A stretch of 60,978 nucleotides of DNA from Marinoscillum sp. (GTDB lineage: Bacteria > Bacteroidota > Bacteroidia > Cytophagales > MED-G16): positions 1 through 60,978 of the forward strand of contig JBELBJ010000002.1 in NCBI GenBank assembly GCA_042095375.1, in the 5' to 3' direction. This document shows positions 6,513-29,259 of this stretch, piece by piece (positions within the stretch are counted from its first letter, which is position 1; each line of letters opens with the position of its first letter). Under the pieces are notes generated by a model. The model was not told where the DNA came from and did not search any database. It was given only the letters and a program-made list of their open reading frames with translations. A program made the position numbers and the translations under genes.

Positions 6513-7952
6513 TTATTTTAATTTTTTTATTCTTATTTTCATGTATGCAAATAGTATAGTCATCAAAGGACTTATTATACTAAAGAAACAATAAGGTAGA
6601 TAGGTTAATGTACCTACATTTAAAACAGAAGCATGGTATGCGCCGCATGTATTCCACGGAACGAGAACTGAAGTCACTGTACCGCCATCTTCAAGAGTTC
6701 TACTTAAATTAACTGGATCTAATCCATTTTTTTTATACGTTTCGGAAAACATTCTTCCAGGAACTACTATTGAAAGATATTGATCCGAAGCTGTAAGATT
6801 AAAAAATACACATGTTCCTACCGTAGAAGTAACTAAAGAACCTGTTGATTTAACTGAGGTAAGAATGGTATTTACAATTTTTTTTAAAAAACCAGAAATT
6901 TCCATCACTCCACCAAAGATCATAGCTGAAAAAATTAACCATATTGTACTTAACATTCCAAACATTCCTCCTGAAGTTAATAATTCATTAACTATTTCAT
7001 TAGAGGTAGAGATAGAAATGGTTCCATATAATGATTTCATAATTCCAACAAAAAGACTTTCAAAGTTAGAATCACTAATCCCAGATACTTCCCGAACAAG
7101 ATCAGGTTGAAAAATAAGTGAAAAAATTACACCTAAAAAGGTGCCACAAAATAAGGCAGGAAGAGCTTTTGTTTTTTTATAAATTAAAAATATTACAAAT
7201 AATGGAACTAAAAATAGTACAGGAGATAAGTAAAATTTTTCGGAAATTGCATTAGAAATTAAAGTAGAATTAGTTTGATTAATATTAGTATAATTGGTTA
7301 ATCCTAAAAATAAAAATAAAACCAAACAAATTAAAATTGATGGTAAAGAAGTATAAGATAAGTATCTAATATGAGAAAATAGATCACTTCCAGCAACAGC
7401 AGGTGATAAATTAGTTGTATCTGACAACGGAGACATTTTATCTCCAAAATATGCTCCACTCAAAATTGACCCAGCTATTAAACCTTCAGAAATTCCTAAT
7501 GCTTTTCCTATTCCAATCAATGCAATTCCAATAGTAGCAGATGTTGTCCAAGAACTACCAGTAGCTAGAGAAACAATAATACAAATGAGACAAGAAGCTA
7601 TCAAAAATATTTTTGGATTTAGCAATTGAATTCCATAATAAATCATTGCAGGAACAATTCCACTTAACATCCATGAACCAGCCAATGATCCTACTAGAAA
7701 TAAAATAAGTATTGAAGGTATTGCTGAACTAATACTATTTACAATTCCTTTTTGTAATTCACTCCATTTGAATCCTATATTTAAAGCAATTGCCGATGCA
7801 ATTGAAGCAGAAACAATTAAAACTATTTGATTACTTCCATCTAAAGATGAATCTTTAAAAATAAAAACATTAATTGATAAAAAAACAATCAAAAAAAGTA
7901 TTGGAAATATAGATTCTAAAAAAGTAGGGTCTCTTAATTTATTTTTTTTCAT
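6513..7952 (-). CDS. nhaC: NhaC-family Na+/H+ antiporter or transporter
   Basis: Polytopic membrane protein with TGSSWTT, GAYFGDKMSPLSDTTNL, SDQYLSIVVPG and SRTLEDGGTVTSVLVPWNTCG. Confidence 0.9.
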   Translation of the reverse strand: MKKNKLRDPTFLESIFPILFLIVFLSINVFIFKDSSLDGSNQIVLIVSASIASAIALNIGFKWSELQKGIVNSISSAIPSILILFLVGSLAGSWMLSGIVPAMIYYGIQLLNPKIFLIASCLICIIVSLATGSSWTTSATIGIALIGIGKALGISEGLIAGSILSGAYFGDKMSPLSDTTNLSPAVAGSDLFSHIRYLSYTSLPSILICLVLFLFLGLTNYTNINQTNSTLISNAISEKFYLSPVLFLVPLFVIFLIYKKTKALPALFCGTFLGVIFSLIFQPDLVREVSGISDSNFESLFVGIMKSLYGTISISTSNEIVNELLTSGGMFGMLSTIWLIFSAMIFGGVMEISGFLKKIVNTILTSVKSTGSLVTSTVGTCVFFNLTASDQYLSIVVPGRMFSETYKKNGLDPVNLSRTLEDGGTVTSVLVPWNTCGAYHASVLNVGTLTYLPYCFFSIISPLMTILFAYMKIRIKKLK

Positions 7953-8031: not shown

Positions 8032-9273
8032 ATGAAAAAAAATAATTCTTTCTTATTAGATTTGATTAAATCACAAAAAGATAATTTTAGTCTAGATCAG
8101 TCTTTTTATACTAGCAAAAACATCTTTGAAATAGATCTTAAAACATTTTTTTTTAATCAGTGGGTTTTTGTTGGTCATATATCAAGAATAAAAAATAAAG
8201 GAGATTATTTTTTATTTAAAATTGGGAATGAATCAATTATATTAATTAGAGAAAATGAAGATAAAATTAATGCATTCTATAATGTATGCAGACATAGAGG
8301 CTCACACATATGTTTAGAAGAGGAAGGAAGACTAAGAAAATTTATATGTCCTTATCATGCATGGAATTATGATTTATCTGGAAAACTTTTGAAAGCAAGA
8401 ATGATGGATAATGATTTCAAACCTGAAAATTGGAGTTTAAAAAAATGTAATTCTTTAGTTTTTGAAGGACTAATTTTTATAAATTTATCAGATAAGCCTT
8501 CTGATTTTGAAAATTTCATCAATCCTATTAAAGACTTTATTAAACTACATGGATTAGGTAAAGCTAAAATAGCAGCAAAAAAAACATATCCAACCAAAGG
8601 AAACTGGAAACTTGCATTAGATAATTTTCATGAGTGTTATCATTGTCAACCTTCTCATCCTGAATATTGTCATGTTCACAGCAAAGAATATATTCAAGCA
8701 TATGGTGCTGGAAGTAATACAGGGCCAGAATCAAAAATGTTTAATAAAAAGTTAGAAATTTGGAATAAAAAAGTAAAAAAAATGGGTTATTTAACCGGTG
8801 AGTATTCAGAAAAAAAATTTTCTAATTTTTTTAGAAGTGCAGAAAGAACACCATTTAGTAATGGAAAACTATCCGAAACAAAATCAGGAAAACCTGCTTC
8901 TATTTTGATGGGTGATTTCAATGAGTTTGATGGCGGGTATACAACTATAGGGCCATCACCTTTTAATAGTATTATAATGACAAATGATTTTGCAACTTTA
9001 TTTACATTTATTCCTAAAAGTCCTACACATACAGAAGTTGAATTGATTTGGTTAGTAAATGAAAATGCTGTTGAAGGAATTGACTATGATATAAATGAAA
9101 TAATGTGGATGTGGGATGAAACAACAAAAGCAGATAAAAGAATAATAGAAAATAATCAAAAAGGAGTTTTATCATCTAAATACGAACCAGGACCATTATC
9201 AAAAATGGAGGTCGGTTTAGATAAACTAAAAAAATGGTATTTAAAACATCTTGAATTAGAAATAACCAAATAA
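8032..9273 (+). CDS. Rieske non-heme iron oxygenase alpha subunit (GbcA/Stc2/CntA-like quaternary-amine group)
   Basis: Rieske ligands CRHRG and CPYHAW; mononuclear Fe motif NWKLALDNFHECYHCQPSHPE; C-terminal D..IIENNQKG. Confidence 0.9.
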   Translation: MKKNNSFLLDLIKSQKDNFSLDQSFYTSKNIFEIDLKTFFFNQWVFVGHISRIKNKGDYFLFKIGNESIILIRENEDKINAFYNVCRHRGSHICLEEEGRLRKFICPYHAWNYDLSGKLLKARMMDNDFKPENWSLKKCNSLVFEGLIFINLSDKPSDFENFINPIKDFIKLHGLGKAKIAAKKTYPTKGNWKLALDNFHECYHCQPSHPEYCHVHSKEYIQAYGAGSNTGPESKMFNKKLEIWNKKVKKMGYLTGEYSEKKFSNFFRSAERTPFSNGKLSETKSGKPASILMGDFNEFDGGYTTIGPSPFNSIIMTNDFATLFTFIPKSPTHTEVELIWLVNENAVEGIDYDINEIMWMWDETTKADKRIIENNQKGVLSSKYEPGPLSKMEVGLDKLKKWYLKHLELEITK

Positions 9274-9279
9274 GATATC

Positions 9280-10851
9280 TTACTTGGTTATTTCATTTAT
9301 CATATTAATAGCATTTGCTCCGTGAAGACCACCACCAGGATGAGTGGATGGGCTACAAATAAAAAGATTCTTGATATGAGTTCTATATTGTGATGAAGAA
9401 ATTGTTGGTCTCATAAATAAAAATTGATCTAGAGTCATTTCACCATGATTGAAACTACCTTCAGTATTATTTAAAGTTGACTCAAAATCAAGAGGTGTAG
9501 AAATAGAAGAGTCAATGATATCGTTAGAAAAGTTTGTAATATACTTATCTAATATAGAGGTCACATTATTAATTATATCTTTTTTTAATTTATCTGACCA
9601 TTTATTATTTTTTAATGCGTAGGGTATATATTGAATTGAAGCAGAAAGAACATGATTATTATCTTTTGCAAAAGAGGGGTTACTAATACTAGGAATACAA
9701 AATTCTATATATGGAGATGATGAAAAACCTCCATATTTAACTTCATCATATGCTTTTTCTAAATAATTTATTGAAGGAGAAATAGAAAATACAGTTTGTA
9801 ATTGATCGTCATTAATACCTTTAATTTTTGGCAAACTTTTTAAGGCAAAATGTAATCTTGCAGTACTTCCTCTATATTTAATATTATTTAATTGTGTTCT
9901 TACATTTGGATATAAATTTTTCGTTTCTAACAATTTAATACAAGTATTTTCTTGATCTAACCCTGATATTATATTTTTAGAAAAAAATATTTCACCATCT
10001 GCTAAAGTAACTCCGTCACAGTTACCATTATTACAATTTATTTTTATAACCTCAGAGTTATTTTTAATTTCAACTCCATAATCCTTTGCTTTTTTTGAAA
10101 AAACACTTGAGAGTGAACTAGTACCTCCCTTAATAAATTTAGCATCTAAAATATTTGTATCTGAATATATATTATGGTGCAAAAAATTAAGAACTGTAGC
10201 TGCAGAATATGGACCTTGATTCAAATGATGTATTCCACTAGCAGCAAGAGTTCCTCTTAATAATTTAGACTCAAACCATTCATCTAATAACTCCGGCATC
10301 ATCATTGGTAATGTTCTCAAAATATCTGCTATACCTCTAGTCCCATGGCTTAAAATCGGATTAAGTAAATTTTTCATGGAAATTGCATCACTTAAACCCA
10401 TTTTTTGAATATTAGGTGGAGTTATTTTATAAAGTGGTTTCAAAAAAGAGGAGATTTTTGATATAAATGAAGTAAAATCATTCCATTTATCTGCATCAGA
10501 TTTTGAAATTTTGGAAATAGATTCAATAGTTTTTTTATTATTTCTATGAAAAAAAATATGATTACCATCTAAATCTAAAGAAACCCTATATAGATCATTA
10601 ATTATCAACTCAATATCATCTTTTTGAATATTTAATTCCTTCAAAACTCTTTCATCTAACCATTTTATATAATCATAAACTAAATTACATCTGAAACCAG
10701 ATGAGAATTCAGATGTAGATGCCATACCTCCTAATGAATCATTAGACTCGAATAACATTACAGACTTTTTCTTTTTAGCCAAAAGAGCAGCAGCAATTAA
10801 TGAGTTTATTCCTCCACCAATAACAATAAAATCATATTTCTTATTTACCAT
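9280..10851 (-). CDS. Phytoene-dehydrogenase-like (PYROXD2-like) FAD oxidoreductase, divergent copy
   Basis: Altered dinucleotide motif GGGINS, LDEWFE, FIKGG, NHGEMTLDQ and THPGGG. Paralogous to the adjacent gene. Confidence 0.8.
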   Translation of the reverse strand: MVNKKYDFIVIGGGINSLIAAALLAKKKKSVMLFESNDSLGGMASTSEFSSGFRCNLVYDYIKWLDERVLKELNIQKDDIELIINDLYRVSLDLDGNHIFFHRNNKKTIESISKISKSDADKWNDFTSFISKISSFLKPLYKITPPNIQKMGLSDAISMKNLLNPILSHGTRGIADILRTLPMMMPELLDEWFESKLLRGTLAASGIHHLNQGPYSAATVLNFLHHNIYSDTNILDAKFIKGGTSSLSSVFSKKAKDYGVEIKNNSEVIKINCNNGNCDGVTLADGEIFFSKNIISGLDQENTCIKLLETKNLYPNVRTQLNNIKYRGSTARLHFALKSLPKIKGINDDQLQTVFSISPSINYLEKAYDEVKYGGFSSSPYIEFCIPSISNPSFAKDNNHVLSASIQYIPYALKNNKWSDKLKKDIINNVTSILDKYITNFSNDIIDSSISTPLDFESTLNNTEGSFNHGEMTLDQFLFMRPTISSSQYRTHIKNLFICSPSTHPGGGLHGANAINMINEITK

Positions 10852-12425
10852 ATTTTAAGAATTTTTTTTGCAGCCATTTCTCCAGGAGACCCAGTTACTC
10901 CTCCACCTGGATGAGTTCCAGACCCACATTGAAAATAATTCTTTATTGGAGTAGTATAATCTGCCCACTTCACCGCAGGTCTAAATGAAAAAAGTTGTTG
11001 TAATGTAAGCTCACCGTGGAAAATATTTCCTTCAGTTAATCCAAAAGTTTTTTCTAAATCTTTTGGTGTTAAAACCTGACGATGTAAGATTAAATCTTTG
11101 ATATTTGGAGCAAACCTGGCTAGGGTATTGACCACTGCATCTCCAAAAGCTTCTCTCTTAGTATCATCCCATCCTCCATTAATATTATATGGGGCATATT
11201 GAACAAAACAAGACATAACATGTTTACCTGGAGGTGCCATTTCAGGATCTATTACAGAAGGTAAGATAATATCCATATATGGTTCTTTAGAAAAATTTCC
11301 ATATTTGGCATCATCATATGCTTTTTCAAGGTGATCATAACTTGGACTAATTGAGATAGCTCCCCTTAAATGAGGGCCATTACCTGGTAAAGAAGTGAAA
11401 TTTGGTAATCCATCTAAAGCTAAATTTACTTTTCCAGATGAACCTCTGATTCTAAAATTTTTTATATCATTAACAAAATCTTCAGGTAAATCACTTTCAT
11501 CTAACATTTTCAAAAAAGTTAGCTTTGGATCTAATCCTGATATTACTATATCTGATTTGTATTCATCACCATTTTCCAAAGCTACTCCTATGGCACTTCC
11601 ATTTTTAACTATTACTTTATTTACGGATGCCTCTGTTAATATTTTTGCACCAAAATGCATTGCAGAACGAGCTATAGTCATACTTAATTCACCAGTTCCT
11701 CCTCTTTGAAAACCCCAGGCACGAAATGAACCATCGATGTCACCCATATAATGATGTAACATAACATATGCTGAACCAGGTGATCTAGGACCCATAAATG
11801 TACCAATAATTCCACTAGCTGCCATTGTTGACTTTAAAGGTTCAAATTCAAACCATTCATCAAGAAAGTCTGCGGAACTCATAGTCATAAGTTTACATAA
11901 ATATTCAAAAGTTTCGTTATTAAGTCCTTTCACATGATTAAATAAGCTTTTTAATGACATTAAATCCTTAAAACTTGGTCTTATAGCATTAGGAGCAATA
12001 GTCTCTAAAATTGGTCTTACCCCCATTCCAACTTGTCCCATCAATGGACCAAATCTCATATAATTCTCAGCATCTTTTGGAGAATGTCTATAAATTTCCT
12101 TGTAAGTTTGATCATAATCAGATGTTCTAAATAAATAATCATTATCAAGTGGAGTAAAAGTACTTTCAAGAGGTAAAATTTCAAGACCAAAACGAGGTAA
12201 CATTAGTTCCCTTATTACATTCGCTTTTAATAAGCTTACTACATATGAACAAACAGAAAATTTAAAACCAGGAAAAATTTCTTCAGTAACAGCTGCACCA
12301 CCTAATACGTGTCTTCTTTCTAATACTAAAACTTTTTTTCCAGCTTTTGATAAATATGCTGCTGCTGTCAATCCATTATGACCCCCACCTATAATTATAA
12401 CGTCATATTTATCTATTTTGGACAT
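10845..12425 (-). CDS. Phytoene-dehydrogenase-like (PYROXD2-like) FAD oxidoreductase
   Basis: IGGGHNGLTAAAYL, LERRHVLGGAAVTEE, DPEMAPPGKHVMS, GLTEGNIFHGEL and CGSGTHPGGGVTG. Confidence 0.9.
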   Translation of the reverse strand: MSKIDKYDVIIIGGGHNGLTAAAYLSKAGKKVLVLERRHVLGGAAVTEEIFPGFKFSVCSYVVSLLKANVIRELMLPRFGLEILPLESTFTPLDNDYLFRTSDYDQTYKEIYRHSPKDAENYMRFGPLMGQVGMGVRPILETIAPNAIRPSFKDLMSLKSLFNHVKGLNNETFEYLCKLMTMSSADFLDEWFEFEPLKSTMAASGIIGTFMGPRSPGSAYVMLHHYMGDIDGSFRAWGFQRGGTGELSMTIARSAMHFGAKILTEASVNKVIVKNGSAIGVALENGDEYKSDIVISGLDPKLTFLKMLDESDLPEDFVNDIKNFRIRGSSGKVNLALDGLPNFTSLPGNGPHLRGAISISPSYDHLEKAYDDAKYGNFSKEPYMDIILPSVIDPEMAPPGKHVMSCFVQYAPYNINGGWDDTKREAFGDAVVNTLARFAPNIKDLILHRQVLTPKDLEKTFGLTEGNIFHGELTLQQLFSFRPAVKWADYTTPIKNYFQCGSGTHPGGGVTGSPGEMAAKKILKIW

Positions 12426-13651
12426 GATATTTTTCTATTAGGGTTATAAAAAGGTGTTTTGACAATTTTAGCTGGAGTTAAATGTCTAAAATGTTCTACT
12501 TTAATTTCAAAATCAAGAACAGTATCCAAACTGGCAAATTTAGAATTTACGTGAGCAAGTGCAATATATTTTTTTAAAATAGGTGACCAACAACCACTAG
12601 ACGCATAACCAACTTGATTTTTTCTATAATATAAAGGTACACTATCCCTCCATGCACCATGAGGAAGCTCAGGAGCAAGTCCAACATTTTTATACAATTT
12701 TTCAAGGTTATCCCACAAAATCTCAATACCAACAAATCTCCATTCTGATGGGTTTTTTTTTTCTAATCTTAGAGCTTCAGATCCAACAAAACTTTCATCA
12801 TTTAACTTTACTGACCATCCCAAGCCTAATTCAAATGGGGATGATTTTCTATCTTCAATTAATGCATTTCTAGAAGATATATAATCTACATCTAATAGAA
12901 TAAGTGAAGCTTCAATCCTTGATATATCAAGGGCATCTAATCCTACTGGAGTTATTCCATAGTTCTTACCAAACTTAATCAATAGATCCCAAACCTTTAA
13001 TGAATCATCTGGGCTAATCCAAATTTCATATCCTAAATCACCTGTATAGCCTGTTCGAGAAATTGAAACCTTAATACCTTTTAACTTGGTTTCAATAATT
13101 TCGAAAAACTTTAGAGTATTAATAGATTTTGTAGAAATAGAATTAATAATATCTCTTGAGTTTGGACCTTGAAGAGCTAAAGCAGCAATTTTATTTGATT
13201 CATCGTATATGTTTACATCCATACCATAAGAATTTAATTCTAACCATGATAAATTGGGTTCGGCACTGGTAAGTCTAAAGTCATTTTTAGCCAATCTTTG
13301 AATAGTACCATCATCAATTACTTTTCCATTTTCATCACACCAAGTAGAATACATAACTTGACCTATTTTACAAATTTTAATATTTCTTGTAACCAATCTA
13401 TTTAAAAATACACTTGAATCTTTTCCACTAATTCTATACTTGTAAAGAGGTGAAATATCTAATAGTGCAGCTTTAGTTCTAATTGCAAAGTATTCATTAT
13501 CATGATTAAGATCATACTTAGTAGCAGATAGATAGCCACCCCATCTTTTCCATTCTTGGGACATATTTAATATACTTGTTCTTTCAAAAAAAGGGGATGT
13601 TTTCATCTGCGTATTAGCAGTAAAATTCATTGAATTTGTAGATTTAAGCAT
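12413..13651 (-). CDS. Stand-alone aminomethyltransferase (GcvT/DmdA-like folate-binding) protein
   Basis: LLDISPLYKY, GKVIDDGT, ALQGP, ISRTGYTGDLGYE, ALDISRIEA and a C-terminal PFYNP. No fused FAD domain. The exact start Met is uncertain. Confidence 0.9.
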   Translation of the reverse strand: MLKSTNSMNFTANTQMKTSPFFERTSILNMSQEWKRWGGYLSATKYDLNHDNEYFAIRTKAALLDISPLYKYRISGKDSSVFLNRLVTRNIKICKIGQVMYSTWCDENGKVIDDGTIQRLAKNDFRLTSAEPNLSWLELNSYGMDVNIYDESNKIAALALQGPNSRDIINSISTKSINTLKFFEIIETKLKGIKVSISRTGYTGDLGYEIWISPDDSLKVWDLLIKFGKNYGITPVGLDALDISRIEASLILLDVDYISSRNALIEDRKSSPFELGLGWSVKLNDESFVGSEALRLEKKNPSEWRFVGIEILWDNLEKLYKNVGLAPELPHGAWRDSVPLYYRKNQVGYASSGCWSPILKKYIALAHVNSKFASLDTVLDFEIKVEHFRHLTPAKIVKTPFYNPNRKISCPK

Positions 13652-13692: not shown

Positions 13693-14776
13693 TTAATTTT
13701 CTTTTTGCAAAAGATATGCTTTAATAAAATCATCAATGTCTCCATTCAAAACATTTGAAACATCACTTCTTTCAATATTTGTTCTTATATCTTTAACTAA
13801 TTTGTATGGATGTAAAATATAATTTCTTATTTGAGACCCAAAATCAATTTGTAACTTTGTGTTTTCAATAGATTCTCTTGACTTTCTTTTTTTTTCTATT
13901 TCTAATTGATAAAGTTTAGATTTTAACATATTCATTGCTTTATCTTTATTTCGTAATTGACTCCTCTCCTGTTGACATTCAATAATTATGCCTGATGGAT
14001 CATGTTTCAATCTAACTGCAGACTCAATTTTATTTACACTTTGACCACCTGCTCCACTTGATCTAAAAGTCTGCCATTCAATATCGGAAGGATTAACAAT
14101 TATATCAATTGTTTCATCAACTTCAGGATAAACAAAAACTGATGCAAAAGAAGTATGTCGCCTTGCTCCAGAATCAAATGGAGATATACGAACAAGTCTA
14201 TGGACTCCAATTTCAGATTTTAAATAACCATATGAAAAAGATCCTTCTATACCTAAAATTGCCGATTTTAAACCAGCTGTTTCTCCTTGTTGAACATTAA
14301 TTTTTTTTACATTAAACTTATGAGATTCAGCCCACATTACATACATCCTCATTAAAATTTCAGCCCAATCTTGACTTTCCGTTCCCCCAGCCCCTGGATT
14401 TATTTCAATTATTGCATTTAACTGGTCTTCTTTTGAAGACAGCATTTTTTGAAATTCAATGCGTTCCAGTTTTTTTATTAATTTATTAAATTCGGACTCA
14501 ATTTCTTCCTTATTAGCTTCTCCAGTAATATAAAACTCATTTAATGTAACTAGATCATCGTACATATTTTGAATTTCAAAATAAGAATCTGTCCAAATTT
14601 TATTTTGATTAATCTTTTTTAAAACAACTTCAGCATTTTTTTTGTCGTTCCAAAAATTTGGTTTCGTAGTAATCGATTCGTTTTCTTTGATAATCTTTAA
14701 TCTATTATCATAGTCAAAGATACCCCCTCAAAGCATCAACTCTTACTTTTAAATCTTTTATTTGATCTGAATTCAT
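13693..14776 (-). CDS. prfB: Peptide chain release factor 2, translated through a programmed +1 frameshift
   Basis: ATG at 14776, then 20 codons ([20 protein letters not shown]) to CTT-TGA-C. The +1 frame (DYDNRL...) is open into the ORF-track frame. [11 protein letters not shown] and GAGGQ motifs are present. Confidence 0.95.
14713..14728 (-). promoter_or_regulatory. prfB autoregulatory +1 frameshift site with internal SD-like element
   Basis: The minus strand reads AGGGGG TAT CTT TGA C, the canonical RF2 shift cassette. Confidence 0.95.
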
Positions 14777-14778
14777 AT

Positions 14779-15831
14779 CTACAATTTAGTTATCCAATTA
14801 TGTTTATCTTCAATTGATCCATACTTTATCCCATCAAGTAAATTCAAAAACTTACTCGAAAACGAAGACGAATTATGATTTGGTAAATCATAATCTTTAT
14901 TTTGATATCCAATAGTTTTAATCGGTGCAATTGTAGCAGCAGTCCCAGCACCAAAAGCTTCTTGCAATGTGTTATCTTTTATTGAACTAATTATCTCATT
15001 AACTGATATTTTCCTTACTTCAGTTGAAATATTTTCAGCTTCCGCAAGAGCTAAAATACTATCTCTGGTAACCCCATCCAAAACAGTATCAGCCAAAGGA
15101 GCAGTTAGTAAAGTATTATTTATTACAAAAAAAAGATTCATGGTCCCAGACTCTTCAACATAATCATGAGTTTTTCCATCAGTCCAAATTAGCTGATCAT
15201 AATTTTCTTTCTTAGCTAAAACAGACGGGTATAAAGAAGCGGCATAATTTGCTGCAGTTTTTGAATATCCTACTCCACCTTTGATAGCTCTGGTAAATTC
15301 TGTTTCAATTTTCACTCTTACAGGTTCAGAATAATAATTACCTGCTGGACAAGTGAATATATAAAATTTAAAATTTTCAGCTGGTTTAATACCAATAAAT
15401 GGATCTAAAGCAATCATCAAAGGCCTAATGTAAAGAGAAGTGTCTTTTTTATTTGGAATCCATTTTTTATCTATCATTAATAATTCAGATATCGCTTTAG
15501 TAAAATATTTTTCTGGAAAACTAGGCATACACATCCTTTCAGCACTTATATTAAATCTTTTAGCATTTTTATCCATCCTAAAAACTAAAATTTTATCTTT
15601 TTTATTTTTATAAGCTTTCAATCCTTCAAAAACTGTTTGACCGTAATGTAAGGTGGTGCAAGCTGGAGAAACTGTAATATCATCAAAAGGAATGATTTTA
15701 AAGTCTTTCCAAGTACCATCTGAAAACTCAGCTTCAAACATATGATCAGAATGAAATTGACCAAATTTAATATTTGAAAAATCAACTTTATCTATATCTG
15801 ATTTTATCTTGTGAGTAACATCTATTTTCAT
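14779..15831 (-). CDS. ilvE: Branched-chain amino acid aminotransferase
   Basis: LHYGQTVFEGLKAY, LYIRP, PLP lysine in GYSKTAANY, EESGTMN, LDGVTRDS and GTAATIAP. Confidence 0.95.
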   Translation of the reverse strand: MKIDVTHKIKSDIDKVDFSNIKFGQFHSDHMFEAEFSDGTWKDFKIIPFDDITVSPACTTLHYGQTVFEGLKAYKNKKDKILVFRMDKNAKRFNISAERMCMPSFPEKYFTKAISELLMIDKKWIPNKKDTSLYIRPLMIALDPFIGIKPAENFKFYIFTCPAGNYYSEPVRVKIETEFTRAIKGGVGYSKTAANYAASLYPSVLAKKENYDQLIWTDGKTHDYVEESGTMNLFFVINNTLLTAPLADTVLDGVTRDSILALAEAENISTEVRKISVNEIISSIKDNTLQEAFGAGTAATIAPIKTIGYQNKDYDLPNHNSSSFSSKFLNLLDGIKYGSIEDKHNWITKL

Positions 15832-28986: not shown

Positions 28987-29259
28987 TTAATCAATTTCAA
29001 TAGTTATTTTTTCAGATCTAGGAAAAGACTGACAACATAAAACATACCCATCTTTTAACTCTTCATCAGAAAGACCATCGTTCACTTCCATTTCAACATC
29101 ACCTTCAACTAATTTACCTATGCAAGATGTACATACCCCACTTTGACAAGAAAATGGTATATCAATATCTTCATCCATAGCTTTTTCAAGTATTGTGGTA
29201 TCTTTATCTACTTCCATTTCAAAAGTTTCACCATCCATAAATACTTTTACGATACTCAT
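28987..29259 (-). CDS. Plant-type [2Fe-2S] ferredoxin
   Basis: PFSCQSGVCTSC and a distal VLCCQS cysteine; acidic 90-aa protein. Confidence 0.92.
   Translation of the reverse strand: MSIVKVFMDGETFEMEVDKDTTILEKAMDEDIDIPFSCQSGVCTSCIGKLVEGDVEMEVNDGLSDEELKDGYVLCCQSFPRSEKITIEID

Follow-up and report, generated by a model that had tools for sequence, protein, structure and literature searches.

A conserved trio of one GcvT-like and two flavoprotein genes in a streamlined Bacteroidota: a putative split, folate-linked N-demethylase related to PYROXD2

In dimethylglycine oxidase and dimethylglycine dehydrogenase (DMGO and DMGDH), sarcosine dehydrogenase (SARDH) and 4-methylaminobutyrate oxidase (MABO), a flavin domain of the DAO family (PF01266), which oxidises an N-methyl group, is fused to a GcvT-fold folate domain, which carries the one-carbon (C1) unit to 5,10-methylene-tetrahydrofolate. 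A GcvT-like folate site also occurs in two multi-subunit flavoprotein N-demethylases, the heterotetrameric sarcosine oxidase SoxBDAG and N-methylglutamate dehydrogenase. GcvT-fold tetrahydrofolate (THF) modules that stand alone or are appended to another domain are found as DmmD of the dmmDABC system and at the C-terminus of the trimethylamine N-oxide (TMAO) demethylase Tdm; both are thought to conjugate the formaldehyde that arises from N-demethylation, DmmD being a free GcvT-fold protein that partners an N-demethylase and probably joins its formaldehyde to THF (PMC5520151). The first 60,978 nucleotides of contig JBELBJ010000002.1 from a Marinoscillum sp. (assembly GCA_042095375.1; 1.55 Mb, 27% G+C, 91% complete), a stretch referred to below as the window, carry three overlapping genes that may represent a further arrangement of this kind: one encodes a GcvT-like folate protein, P0003, and the others encode two related flavoproteins, here called FlavA and FlavB.

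On balance, the gene families and their context make it probable that FlavA with FlavB is a flavin adenine dinucleotide (FAD)-dependent dehydrogenase or oxidase of N-methylated secondary or tertiary amines, that the GcvT-fold protein passes the C1 unit to THF, and that a Rieske oxygenase encoded next to the trio acts first. FlavA, probably complexed with FlavB, would dehydrogenate the C-N bond of the amine to give an iminium, and the free-standing GcvT-fold protein would trap the C1 unit, as the iminium or as formaldehyde, on THF to form 5,10-methylene-THF; capture in this way would avoid free formaldehyde and feed C1 metabolism. The Rieske enzyme, of the Stc2/GbcA type, probably takes the first methyl group off a quaternary, betaine-type precursor. 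Candidate electron acceptors are O2, a quinone or electron transfer flavoprotein (ETF), and the presence of ETF genes in the organism's own genome is not decisive among them.

N-demethylation by a flavin enzyme linked to folate is already known, and the proposed logic is the same as in DMGO, DMGDH, SARDH and MABO; what would be new here are the flavoprotein family, its deployment as a pair (A and B) and a folate partner that is a free protein. Whereas those enzymes join a DAO-family flavin domain to the folate domain, P0003 has no FAD domain and the flavoproteins are separate proteins of the CrtI/PYROXD2 type (PF01593), so the locus does not belong to the fused class. In architecture the locus fits a stand-alone folate partner of the DmmD type, and the Tdm domain is the best NCBIfam match of P0003, but their partners are DmmABC or a Zn/Fe DUF1989 domain, whereas here the partner would be the PYROXD2-type pair. 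The subunit families also differ from those of SoxBDAG, and no homologues of SoxB (a DAO protein), SoxD or SoxG were found around the trio in the window. No description of the trio as a module was found in the literature searched.

The three open reading frames (ORFs), as given in the ORF list of the window, are co-oriented on the minus strand (Table 1). They overlap by 13 nucleotides (nt) at the GcvT/FlavA junction (ATGTCCAAAATAG) and by 7 nt at the FlavA/FlavB junction (ATGGTAA), both read from the sequence, and these overlapping stop and start codons are predicted to couple their translation, which is counted here as support. The first-pass annotation had described just this arrangement of one GcvT-like and two flavoprotein genes, and Pfam agrees, with GCV_T and GCV_T_C matches for P0003 and Amino_oxidase and NAD_binding_8 matches for both of the others.

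An initial scan with FlavA yielded 80 loci, and the order GcvT-FlavA-FlavB was found in essentially every contig of that set that was long enough. A profile scan gave more than 593 loci, of which 80 were kept; besides Marinimicrobia and Gemmatimonadota these also cover Acidobacteriota, Chloroflexota, Eisenbacteria and Pseudomonadota, and together with Bacteroidota at least seven phyla carry the module. Neighbouring genes were counted on tblastn-based gene maps of those 85 loci where FlavA is flanked by 3.5 kb or more on each side. A second flavoprotein is encoded at 84 of these and a GcvT-type protein at 81, so that the arrangement is not a chance one; a gene for a Rieske oxygenase of the betaine-demethylase type lies nearby at 56, and at 29 the trio is present with no Rieske gene within 6 kb. 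A DDAH/ADI-like hydrolase and an APC amino-acid permease are each encoded at 31 of the 85, and an ArgE/DapE-type M20 deacylase at 18. Among loci with adequate flanks, GcvT and FlavA are most often spaced by -13 or -10 nt, and FlavA and FlavB by -7 nt. The Pyrinomonadaceae have FlavA-FlavB transcribed divergently from the genes for the permease, the Rieske protein and GcvT, yet the set remains together, and it is because the linkage of the trio survives such rearrangement that a common function is argued for. The three genes are thus kept as a unit across all seven phyla, a point on which the earlier proposal of a split flavin/folate N-demethylase had been made to depend. That unit, the protein families and the Rieske context support the proposal in part; the heteromer, the oxidation of an N-methyl group and the transfer to THF are the parts of it that we infer.

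P0003 is a member of the GcvT/aminomethyltransferase superfamily, with scores of 199.2 bits for PF01571 and 44.9 bits for PF08669, both over the cut-offs. It aligns over its full length with GcvT of B. subtilis (1yx2) and with the C-terminal domain of Tdm, and in this alignment it retains the folate-site motifs DD and SRTGYTG(D/E)LGYEI. Among NCBIfam models it scores highest (270 bits) with that of the folate domain at the C-terminus of TMAO demethylase, and it has further matches to the DMGO and DMGDH folate domains and to the C-terminal region of SoxA, the soxA model itself giving 158 against a cut-off of 1164. It falls under both curated cut-offs for GcvT proper (218.8 against 300 and 184.6 against 235.85 in the PRK00389/TIGR00528 tests).

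FlavA and FlavB share 33.5% identity. A tree of 96 sequences splits them by a single branch with a support of 100, the FlavB branches being several times longer, and because the two lie on opposite sides of that one branch, the tree places their duplication before the spread of the module. The dinucleotide motifs named in the first-pass annotation are present, as IIIGGGHNGL in FlavA and VIGGGINSL in FlavB; the serine of GGGINS is a feature of the marine FlavB clade (Marinimicrobia and Marinoscillaceae), the FlavB proteins of other phyla having mostly GAGHNG. The C-terminal motif of FlavB, which had been called degenerate, proves not to be so: STHPGGGLHG retains the THPGGG core, which is invariant in both paralogues. 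With this core and the other FAD-type motif residues (G12, G14, E35 and G41-G42) in place, FlavB has probably retained the binding of a dinucleotide cofactor. Ten residues that do not vary among FlavA, PYROXD2 and their solo relatives have been lost from it, the aromatics Y61, Y220, W237 and F407 among them, and we take FlavA to be the likely catalytic subunit and FlavB an auxiliary or differently specialised one. Purifying selection acts on all three genes, FlavB included: in comparisons with three relatives, the ratio of nonsynonymous to synonymous substitution rates (dN/dS) is 0.03-0.05 for FlavA, the lowest in the neighbourhood and below that of prfB, 0.07-0.14 for the GcvT-like gene and 0.13-0.21 for FlavB.

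Confident AlphaFold2 models of FlavA and FlavB were obtained, with predicted local distance difference test (pLDDT) scores of 88.7 and 89.2. The solved folds closest to the FlavA model are the CrtD-like protein 4rep (template-modelling score 0.76-0.81) and CrtI (4dgk), after which come putrescine oxidase, monoamine oxidase and nicotine oxidoreductase, all at 15-18% identity, and oxidation of C-C bonds is not separable from that of C-N bonds on the modelled fold alone. LSD1 demethylates N-methyl-lysine by flavin oxidation, releasing formaldehyde, and LSD1/KDM1 and the polyamine oxidases have the amine-oxidase fold in common with the two flavoproteins; they differ in that the sequence relation is distant, their substrates are proteins or polyamines, and they are not known to have a dedicated GcvT-fold partner.

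The Rieske protein encoded beside the trio has its metal ligands intact (C86/H88 and C106/H109 in CxH...CxxH, and D197/H200/H204 in DxxHxxxH). In the PDB it matches stachydrine demethylase Stc2 best (3vca; E 1e-78, full length), with carnitine monooxygenase CntA next, and its best NCBIfam model is GbcA, at 327 bits against a cut-off of 670 and so below equivalog level. It is a member of the quaternary-amine demethylase family, with no specificity assigned by an equivalog-level match. Its identity to the Rieske proteins of the Marinimicrobia modules amounts to only about 30%, and its nearest relatives outside Bacteroidota are found in HIMB59/SAR11 (64-67% identity). The orthologous gene is clustered there, in a conserved arrangement, with genes for two glutamine-synthetase-like proteins, two DAO flavoproteins, an agmatine deiminase and a C-N hydrolase; this looks like an uncharacterised amine or polyamine catabolic pathway with an oxygenase of the betaine-demethylase type among its members. 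Elsewhere in the window (29020-29241, minus strand) is a gene for a small plant-type [2Fe-2S] ferredoxin, which could donate electrons to the Rieske oxygenase.

The lineages indicate three or more separate events in which a Rieske gene of the quaternary-amine type came to lie beside a gene for a PYROXD2-family flavoprotein: in the modules of Marinimicrobia, Gemmatimonadota and Acidobacteriota, in the window with its Rieske gene of a different lineage, and at loci of the Steroidobacteraceae type where the flavoprotein gene is solo. At the last of these, one or two genes for CntA/GbcA-type Rieske proteins lie directly upstream of the PYROXD2-clade gene and in the same orientation (26 of 80 loci, from Steroidobacteraceae and other Gammaproteobacteria). 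A quaternary nitrogen has no lone pair and is not oxidisable by a flavin; the pairing would be explained by the need for an oxygenase to remove the first methyl group of a quaternary amine.

The first-pass annotation had called both flavoproteins PYROXD2-like. This stands for FlavA, which is 41% identical to oyster PYROXD2 in BLASTP (residues 7-523 against 43-578, E 3e-142), that is, over essentially its full length; FlavB is a distant paralogue (26%, E 3e-55). When 1.84 billion representative proteins were searched, a 584-amino acid (aa) protein ranked 14th, at 44% identity, and its cluster includes an oyster protein annotated as PYROXD2. Of the 154 invariant columns of FlavA, PYROXD2 shares about 70%. 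In a quick tree of 77 sequences, which has a long outgroup branch, the FlavA clade (support 97) is sister to a clade that holds animal and choanoflagellate PYROXD2 along with many bacterial genes; the joint group has a support of 98, and the FlavB lineages lie outside it. In this tree PYROXD2 thus appears as sister to FlavA, not inside its clade, and it differs further in that it and its nearest bacterial relatives are encoded by single genes without FlavB or GcvT.

Two observations on members of this wider family may be recorded here. At 14 of the 80 loci with a solo PYROXD2-clade gene, in Hyphomicrobiales/Xanthobacteraceae, a gene for a small SET-domain protein (the lysine methyltransferase fold) adjoins the flavoprotein gene and is divergent from it, with SET identity down to 55%; the two could be a writer and eraser pair for methyl-lysine. 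One further locus (L163:1437-3887), with eukaryote-like neighbours, has an 816-aa ORF in which a glutathione-dependent formaldehyde-activating (GFA) domain is fused to a FlavA-like flavoprotein.

No reaction is assigned to animal PYROXD2, an orphan mitochondrial flavoprotein (PMC8777681). The human locus has association signals for trimethylamine in urine, dimethylamine in plasma and asymmetric dimethylarginine (PMC9286311), and it is the strongest metabolite quantitative trait locus in cerebrospinal fluid for N-epsilon-dimethyl-lysine (bioRxiv 10.1101/2023.09.26.559021). The tie to methylamine-type metabolites in metabolomic genome-wide association studies, to which the first-pass annotation had appealed, is therefore real as an association, but the causal gene is disputed for trimethylamine, where one study favours HPS1 at the HPS1/PYROXD2 locus (PMC9286311). 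We raise tentatively, as a possibility that we would not yet call likely, that the PYROXD2-family flavoproteins, the human enzyme among them, act on free N-methylated amines as oxidative demethylases, with dimethylamine, N-epsilon-mono- and dimethyl-lysine and methylarginine-derived amines as examples of substrates; the trio would then be a third, split and THF-coupled architecture downstream of Rieske demethylases.

The module had been thought unusual for its lineage, and this is borne out by its patchy distribution within the family and by its grouping with the copies of Marinimicrobia. Identity to the latter is 83-86% for FlavA (against 61-66% for the copies in five further phyla), 64-71% for GcvT and 47-54% for FlavB. 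Each of the three gene trees unites the Marinoscillaceae copies in a single clade that lies within or next to that of Marinimicrobia, well away from the soil phyla: in the FlavB tree the Bacteroidota copies nest among those of Marinimicrobia, in the GcvT tree they are sister to them, and in the FlavA tree their position is unresolved. These relationships point to acquisition of the trio by transfer between phyla, the direction probably being from Marinimicrobia, with the nesting seen in the FlavB tree only. The third-position G+C content of the trio is fully ameliorated, and the transfer is therefore not recent.

The slot between prfB and the gene for an NhaC-type transporter varies among the Marinoscillaceae relatives. 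It holds the trio and a Rieske gene in genomes G000 and G006, a saccharopine-dehydrogenase-like gene and a Rieske gene in G009, the saccharopine-dehydrogenase-like gene only in G004, and in G010 a gene for a different, 502-aa amine-oxidase-like flavoprotein together with a Rieske gene. The NhaC gene has the same position in all relatives, with or without the trio. Because the content of the slot varies while NhaC is constant, and because the Rieske gene occurs without the trio, the comparison indicates that the acquired unit is the three genes alone, set beside a resident Rieske gene. The transporter, which scores 404 bits with TIGR00931 (above the cut-off) and 352 bits with the ArcD model, is a possible substrate carrier but not part of the acquired module. 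Elsewhere in the window, at 862-2184 on the minus strand, a 440-aa ORF is a distant match (27-29%) to the saccharopine-dehydrogenase-like slot genes of the relatives.

Table 1. Coordinates in the window of the trio and of the genes next to it
Feature	Position	Strand	Domains and remarks
GcvT-like folate protein (P0003, 412 aa)	12413..13651	-	PF01571 + PF08669; proposed C1 acceptor, giving 5,10-methylene-THF
FlavA (P0002, 526 aa), PYROXD2-type FAD flavoprotein, GGGHNG	10845..12425	-	PF01593 + PF13450; proposed catalytic subunit
FlavB (P0001, 523 aa), divergent FlavA paralogue, GGGINS	9280..10851	-	Amino_oxidase/NAD_binding_8; proposed auxiliary or second subunit
Rieske non-haem iron oxygenase alpha subunit, Stc2/GbcA/CntA type	8032..9273	+	PF00355 + PF00848; convergent to the trio
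NhaC-family transporter, also resembling the ArcD arginine/ornithine antiporter	6513..7952	-	TIGR00931; context gene

Candidate substrates for the proposed N-demethylase would be dimethylglycine or sarcosine, N-methylproline, N-methylated lysine or arginine, dimethylamine and N-methylated polyamines. A basic N-methylated amino acid or amine is favoured, both by the genes for a permease, a DDAH-like hydrolase and a deacylase that lie near the trio elsewhere and by the human data. No PuuA-, PuuB-, AguA- or AguB-like genes were found in the organism's own genome.

Several observations weigh against this assignment of N-demethylation to the trio. The organism's own genome has no DDAH-like, M20 or APC homologue and no BCCT transporter, and the carotenoid desaturases 4rep and 4dgk outrank the amine oxidases among the solved folds. 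The bacterial genes on the PYROXD2 side of the tree are solo: a GcvT neighbour was found in none of four informative contigs, and a proteobacterial subclade on that side has, over 80 loci, no second flavoprotein and no GcvT beyond one weak match of 69 residues, so that the folate link may be specific to the FlavA clade. The fusion of a GFA domain to a FlavA-like protein is a singleton, a targeted search having given no second example. Lastly, G009 and G010 retain the Rieske gene without the trio, and its linkage is thus not obligate.

The GcvT-like protein might instead serve the Rieske enzyme, trapping the formaldehyde that the latter releases as DmmD does for DmmABC, with FlavA and FlavB acting otherwise on the demethylated product, for example by oxidative deamination or by a cleavage like that of the polyamine oxidases, in which case the C1 unit would not come from them. 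There is a precedent in DmmD for a free GcvT-fold partner of an oxygenase, and the Rieske gene is adjacent here and present at the 56 loci counted above; moreover, the other occupants of the slot in relatives are themselves amine-oxidising enzymes, and the orthologous HIMB59/SAR11 Rieske gene belongs to a polyamine/agmatine catabolic cluster. We nevertheless regard this alternative as unlikely. The overlapping stop and start codons join GcvT to FlavA and FlavB, not to the Rieske gene, which in the window is convergent, belongs to another lineage and is kept in relatives that have no GcvT; the trio occurs by itself, with no Rieske gene close at hand, at the 29 loci already mentioned; and solo PYROXD2-clade genes adjoin Rieske genes in the absence of any GcvT.

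It is more doubtful that FlavA and FlavB oxidise a substrate other than an N-methyl group, by C-C desaturation or at a glycine-like N-CH2 moiety, with the GcvT-fold protein handling an aminomethyl-type or other intermediate. The redox reactions of the CrtI/RetSat/CRTISO superfamily are diverse, desaturases are the nearest folds, and the organism's own genome points to no substrate that could be named. The neighbouring genes, however, are those of amine and amino-acid metabolism, the neighbouring Rieske genes are of N-demethylase types, and to our knowledge all characterised GcvT-fold partners handle a C1 unit bound to N, S or O, which counts against a non-methyl substrate. With N-demethylation by the trio still preferred, two further explanations fare much worse.

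That the flavoproteins are carotenoid enzymes, CrtO-like ketolases or CrtI/CrtD-like desaturases whose adjacency to GcvT is incidental, is very improbable. They share the fold superfamily and the nearest solved structures with CrtI, CrtD and CrtO, the best NCBIfam model for both is that of CrtO (336 bits for FlavA and 203 for FlavB), and databases name their homologues 'beta-carotene ketolase' or 'phytoene dehydrogenase-like'. These scores are far under the cut-offs, though, which stand at 1000 for CrtO (NF045689) and at 238 for crtI_fam (TIGR02734; 101-105 for FlavA and 88-90 for FlavB). The genome has a true CrtI elsewhere (412 bits), whose gene lies 2 kb from that of phytoene synthase (crtB) on contig C16; no crt genes were seen at any of about 150 module loci; and the linkage to GcvT extends across seven phyla. 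The carotenoid role was rejected on the genuine crtI beside crtB and the sub-cut-off scores.

The own assembly contains gcvH (C12:12282-12632) and fragments of gcvP (C59), P0003 is its sole strong GCV_T match, and no canonical gcvT was found in it. Two types of GcvT are found in relatives of the same genus and family, one canonical (about 305 bits, about 361 aa) and one of the module type (about 200 bits, 413-423 aa), and several relatives have the canonical protein alone; because relatives carry this separate gene, the host's canonical gcvT is probably to be placed in the missing 9% of the assembly. That P0003 is the glycine-cleavage T-protein of its host, as the gcvH and gcvP genes with no other strong GCV_T match might suggest, can hardly be credited in an assembly only 91% complete, given that it scores below both GcvT equivalog cut-offs and higher on the Tdm folate domain, and this housekeeping role was rejected on the separate canonical gcvT of same-genus relatives.

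Two features of the window lie apart from the trio. The prfB gene (RF2) upstream of it is split between two frames, and the stretch at 14565-14779 on the minus strand has the classic programmed +1 frameshift site at about 14707-14722 (AGGGGG TAT CTT TGA C); the listed 290-aa prfB ORF (13693-14565) is the downstream frame only. Between 17373 and 27918 are three tandem genes of about 1150 aa for Sortilin/VPS10-repeat proteins with C-terminal sorting domains of the type IX secretion system, the Pfam annotation behind the repeat calls covering the first two of the three. Such sorting domains in genes nearby, together with public contigs almost identical to the window, place it in an uncultured Marinoscillum/Marinoscillaceae lineage of the Cytophagales.

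Methylated amines matter in marine nitrogen cycling and in aerosol formation. If the N-demethylase reading is right, the trio would be a new enzyme architecture in folate-linked C1 metabolism, and it would give testable chemistry and a short list of substrates for PYROXD2, a human mitochondrial disease gene whose locus ranks with the strongest metabolite quantitative trait loci for methyl-lysines. The dmmDABC genes are rare in marine metagenomes (PMC5520151), and the trio could supply the demethylation of methylated amines in abundant marine lineages such as Marinimicrobia and Marinoscillaceae. A streamlined Bacteroidota of 1.55 Mb gained these three genes and has retained them under strong selection, and for abundant uncultured marine bacteria of this kind they would offer a route by which carbon, nitrogen and energy are gained from methylated amines.

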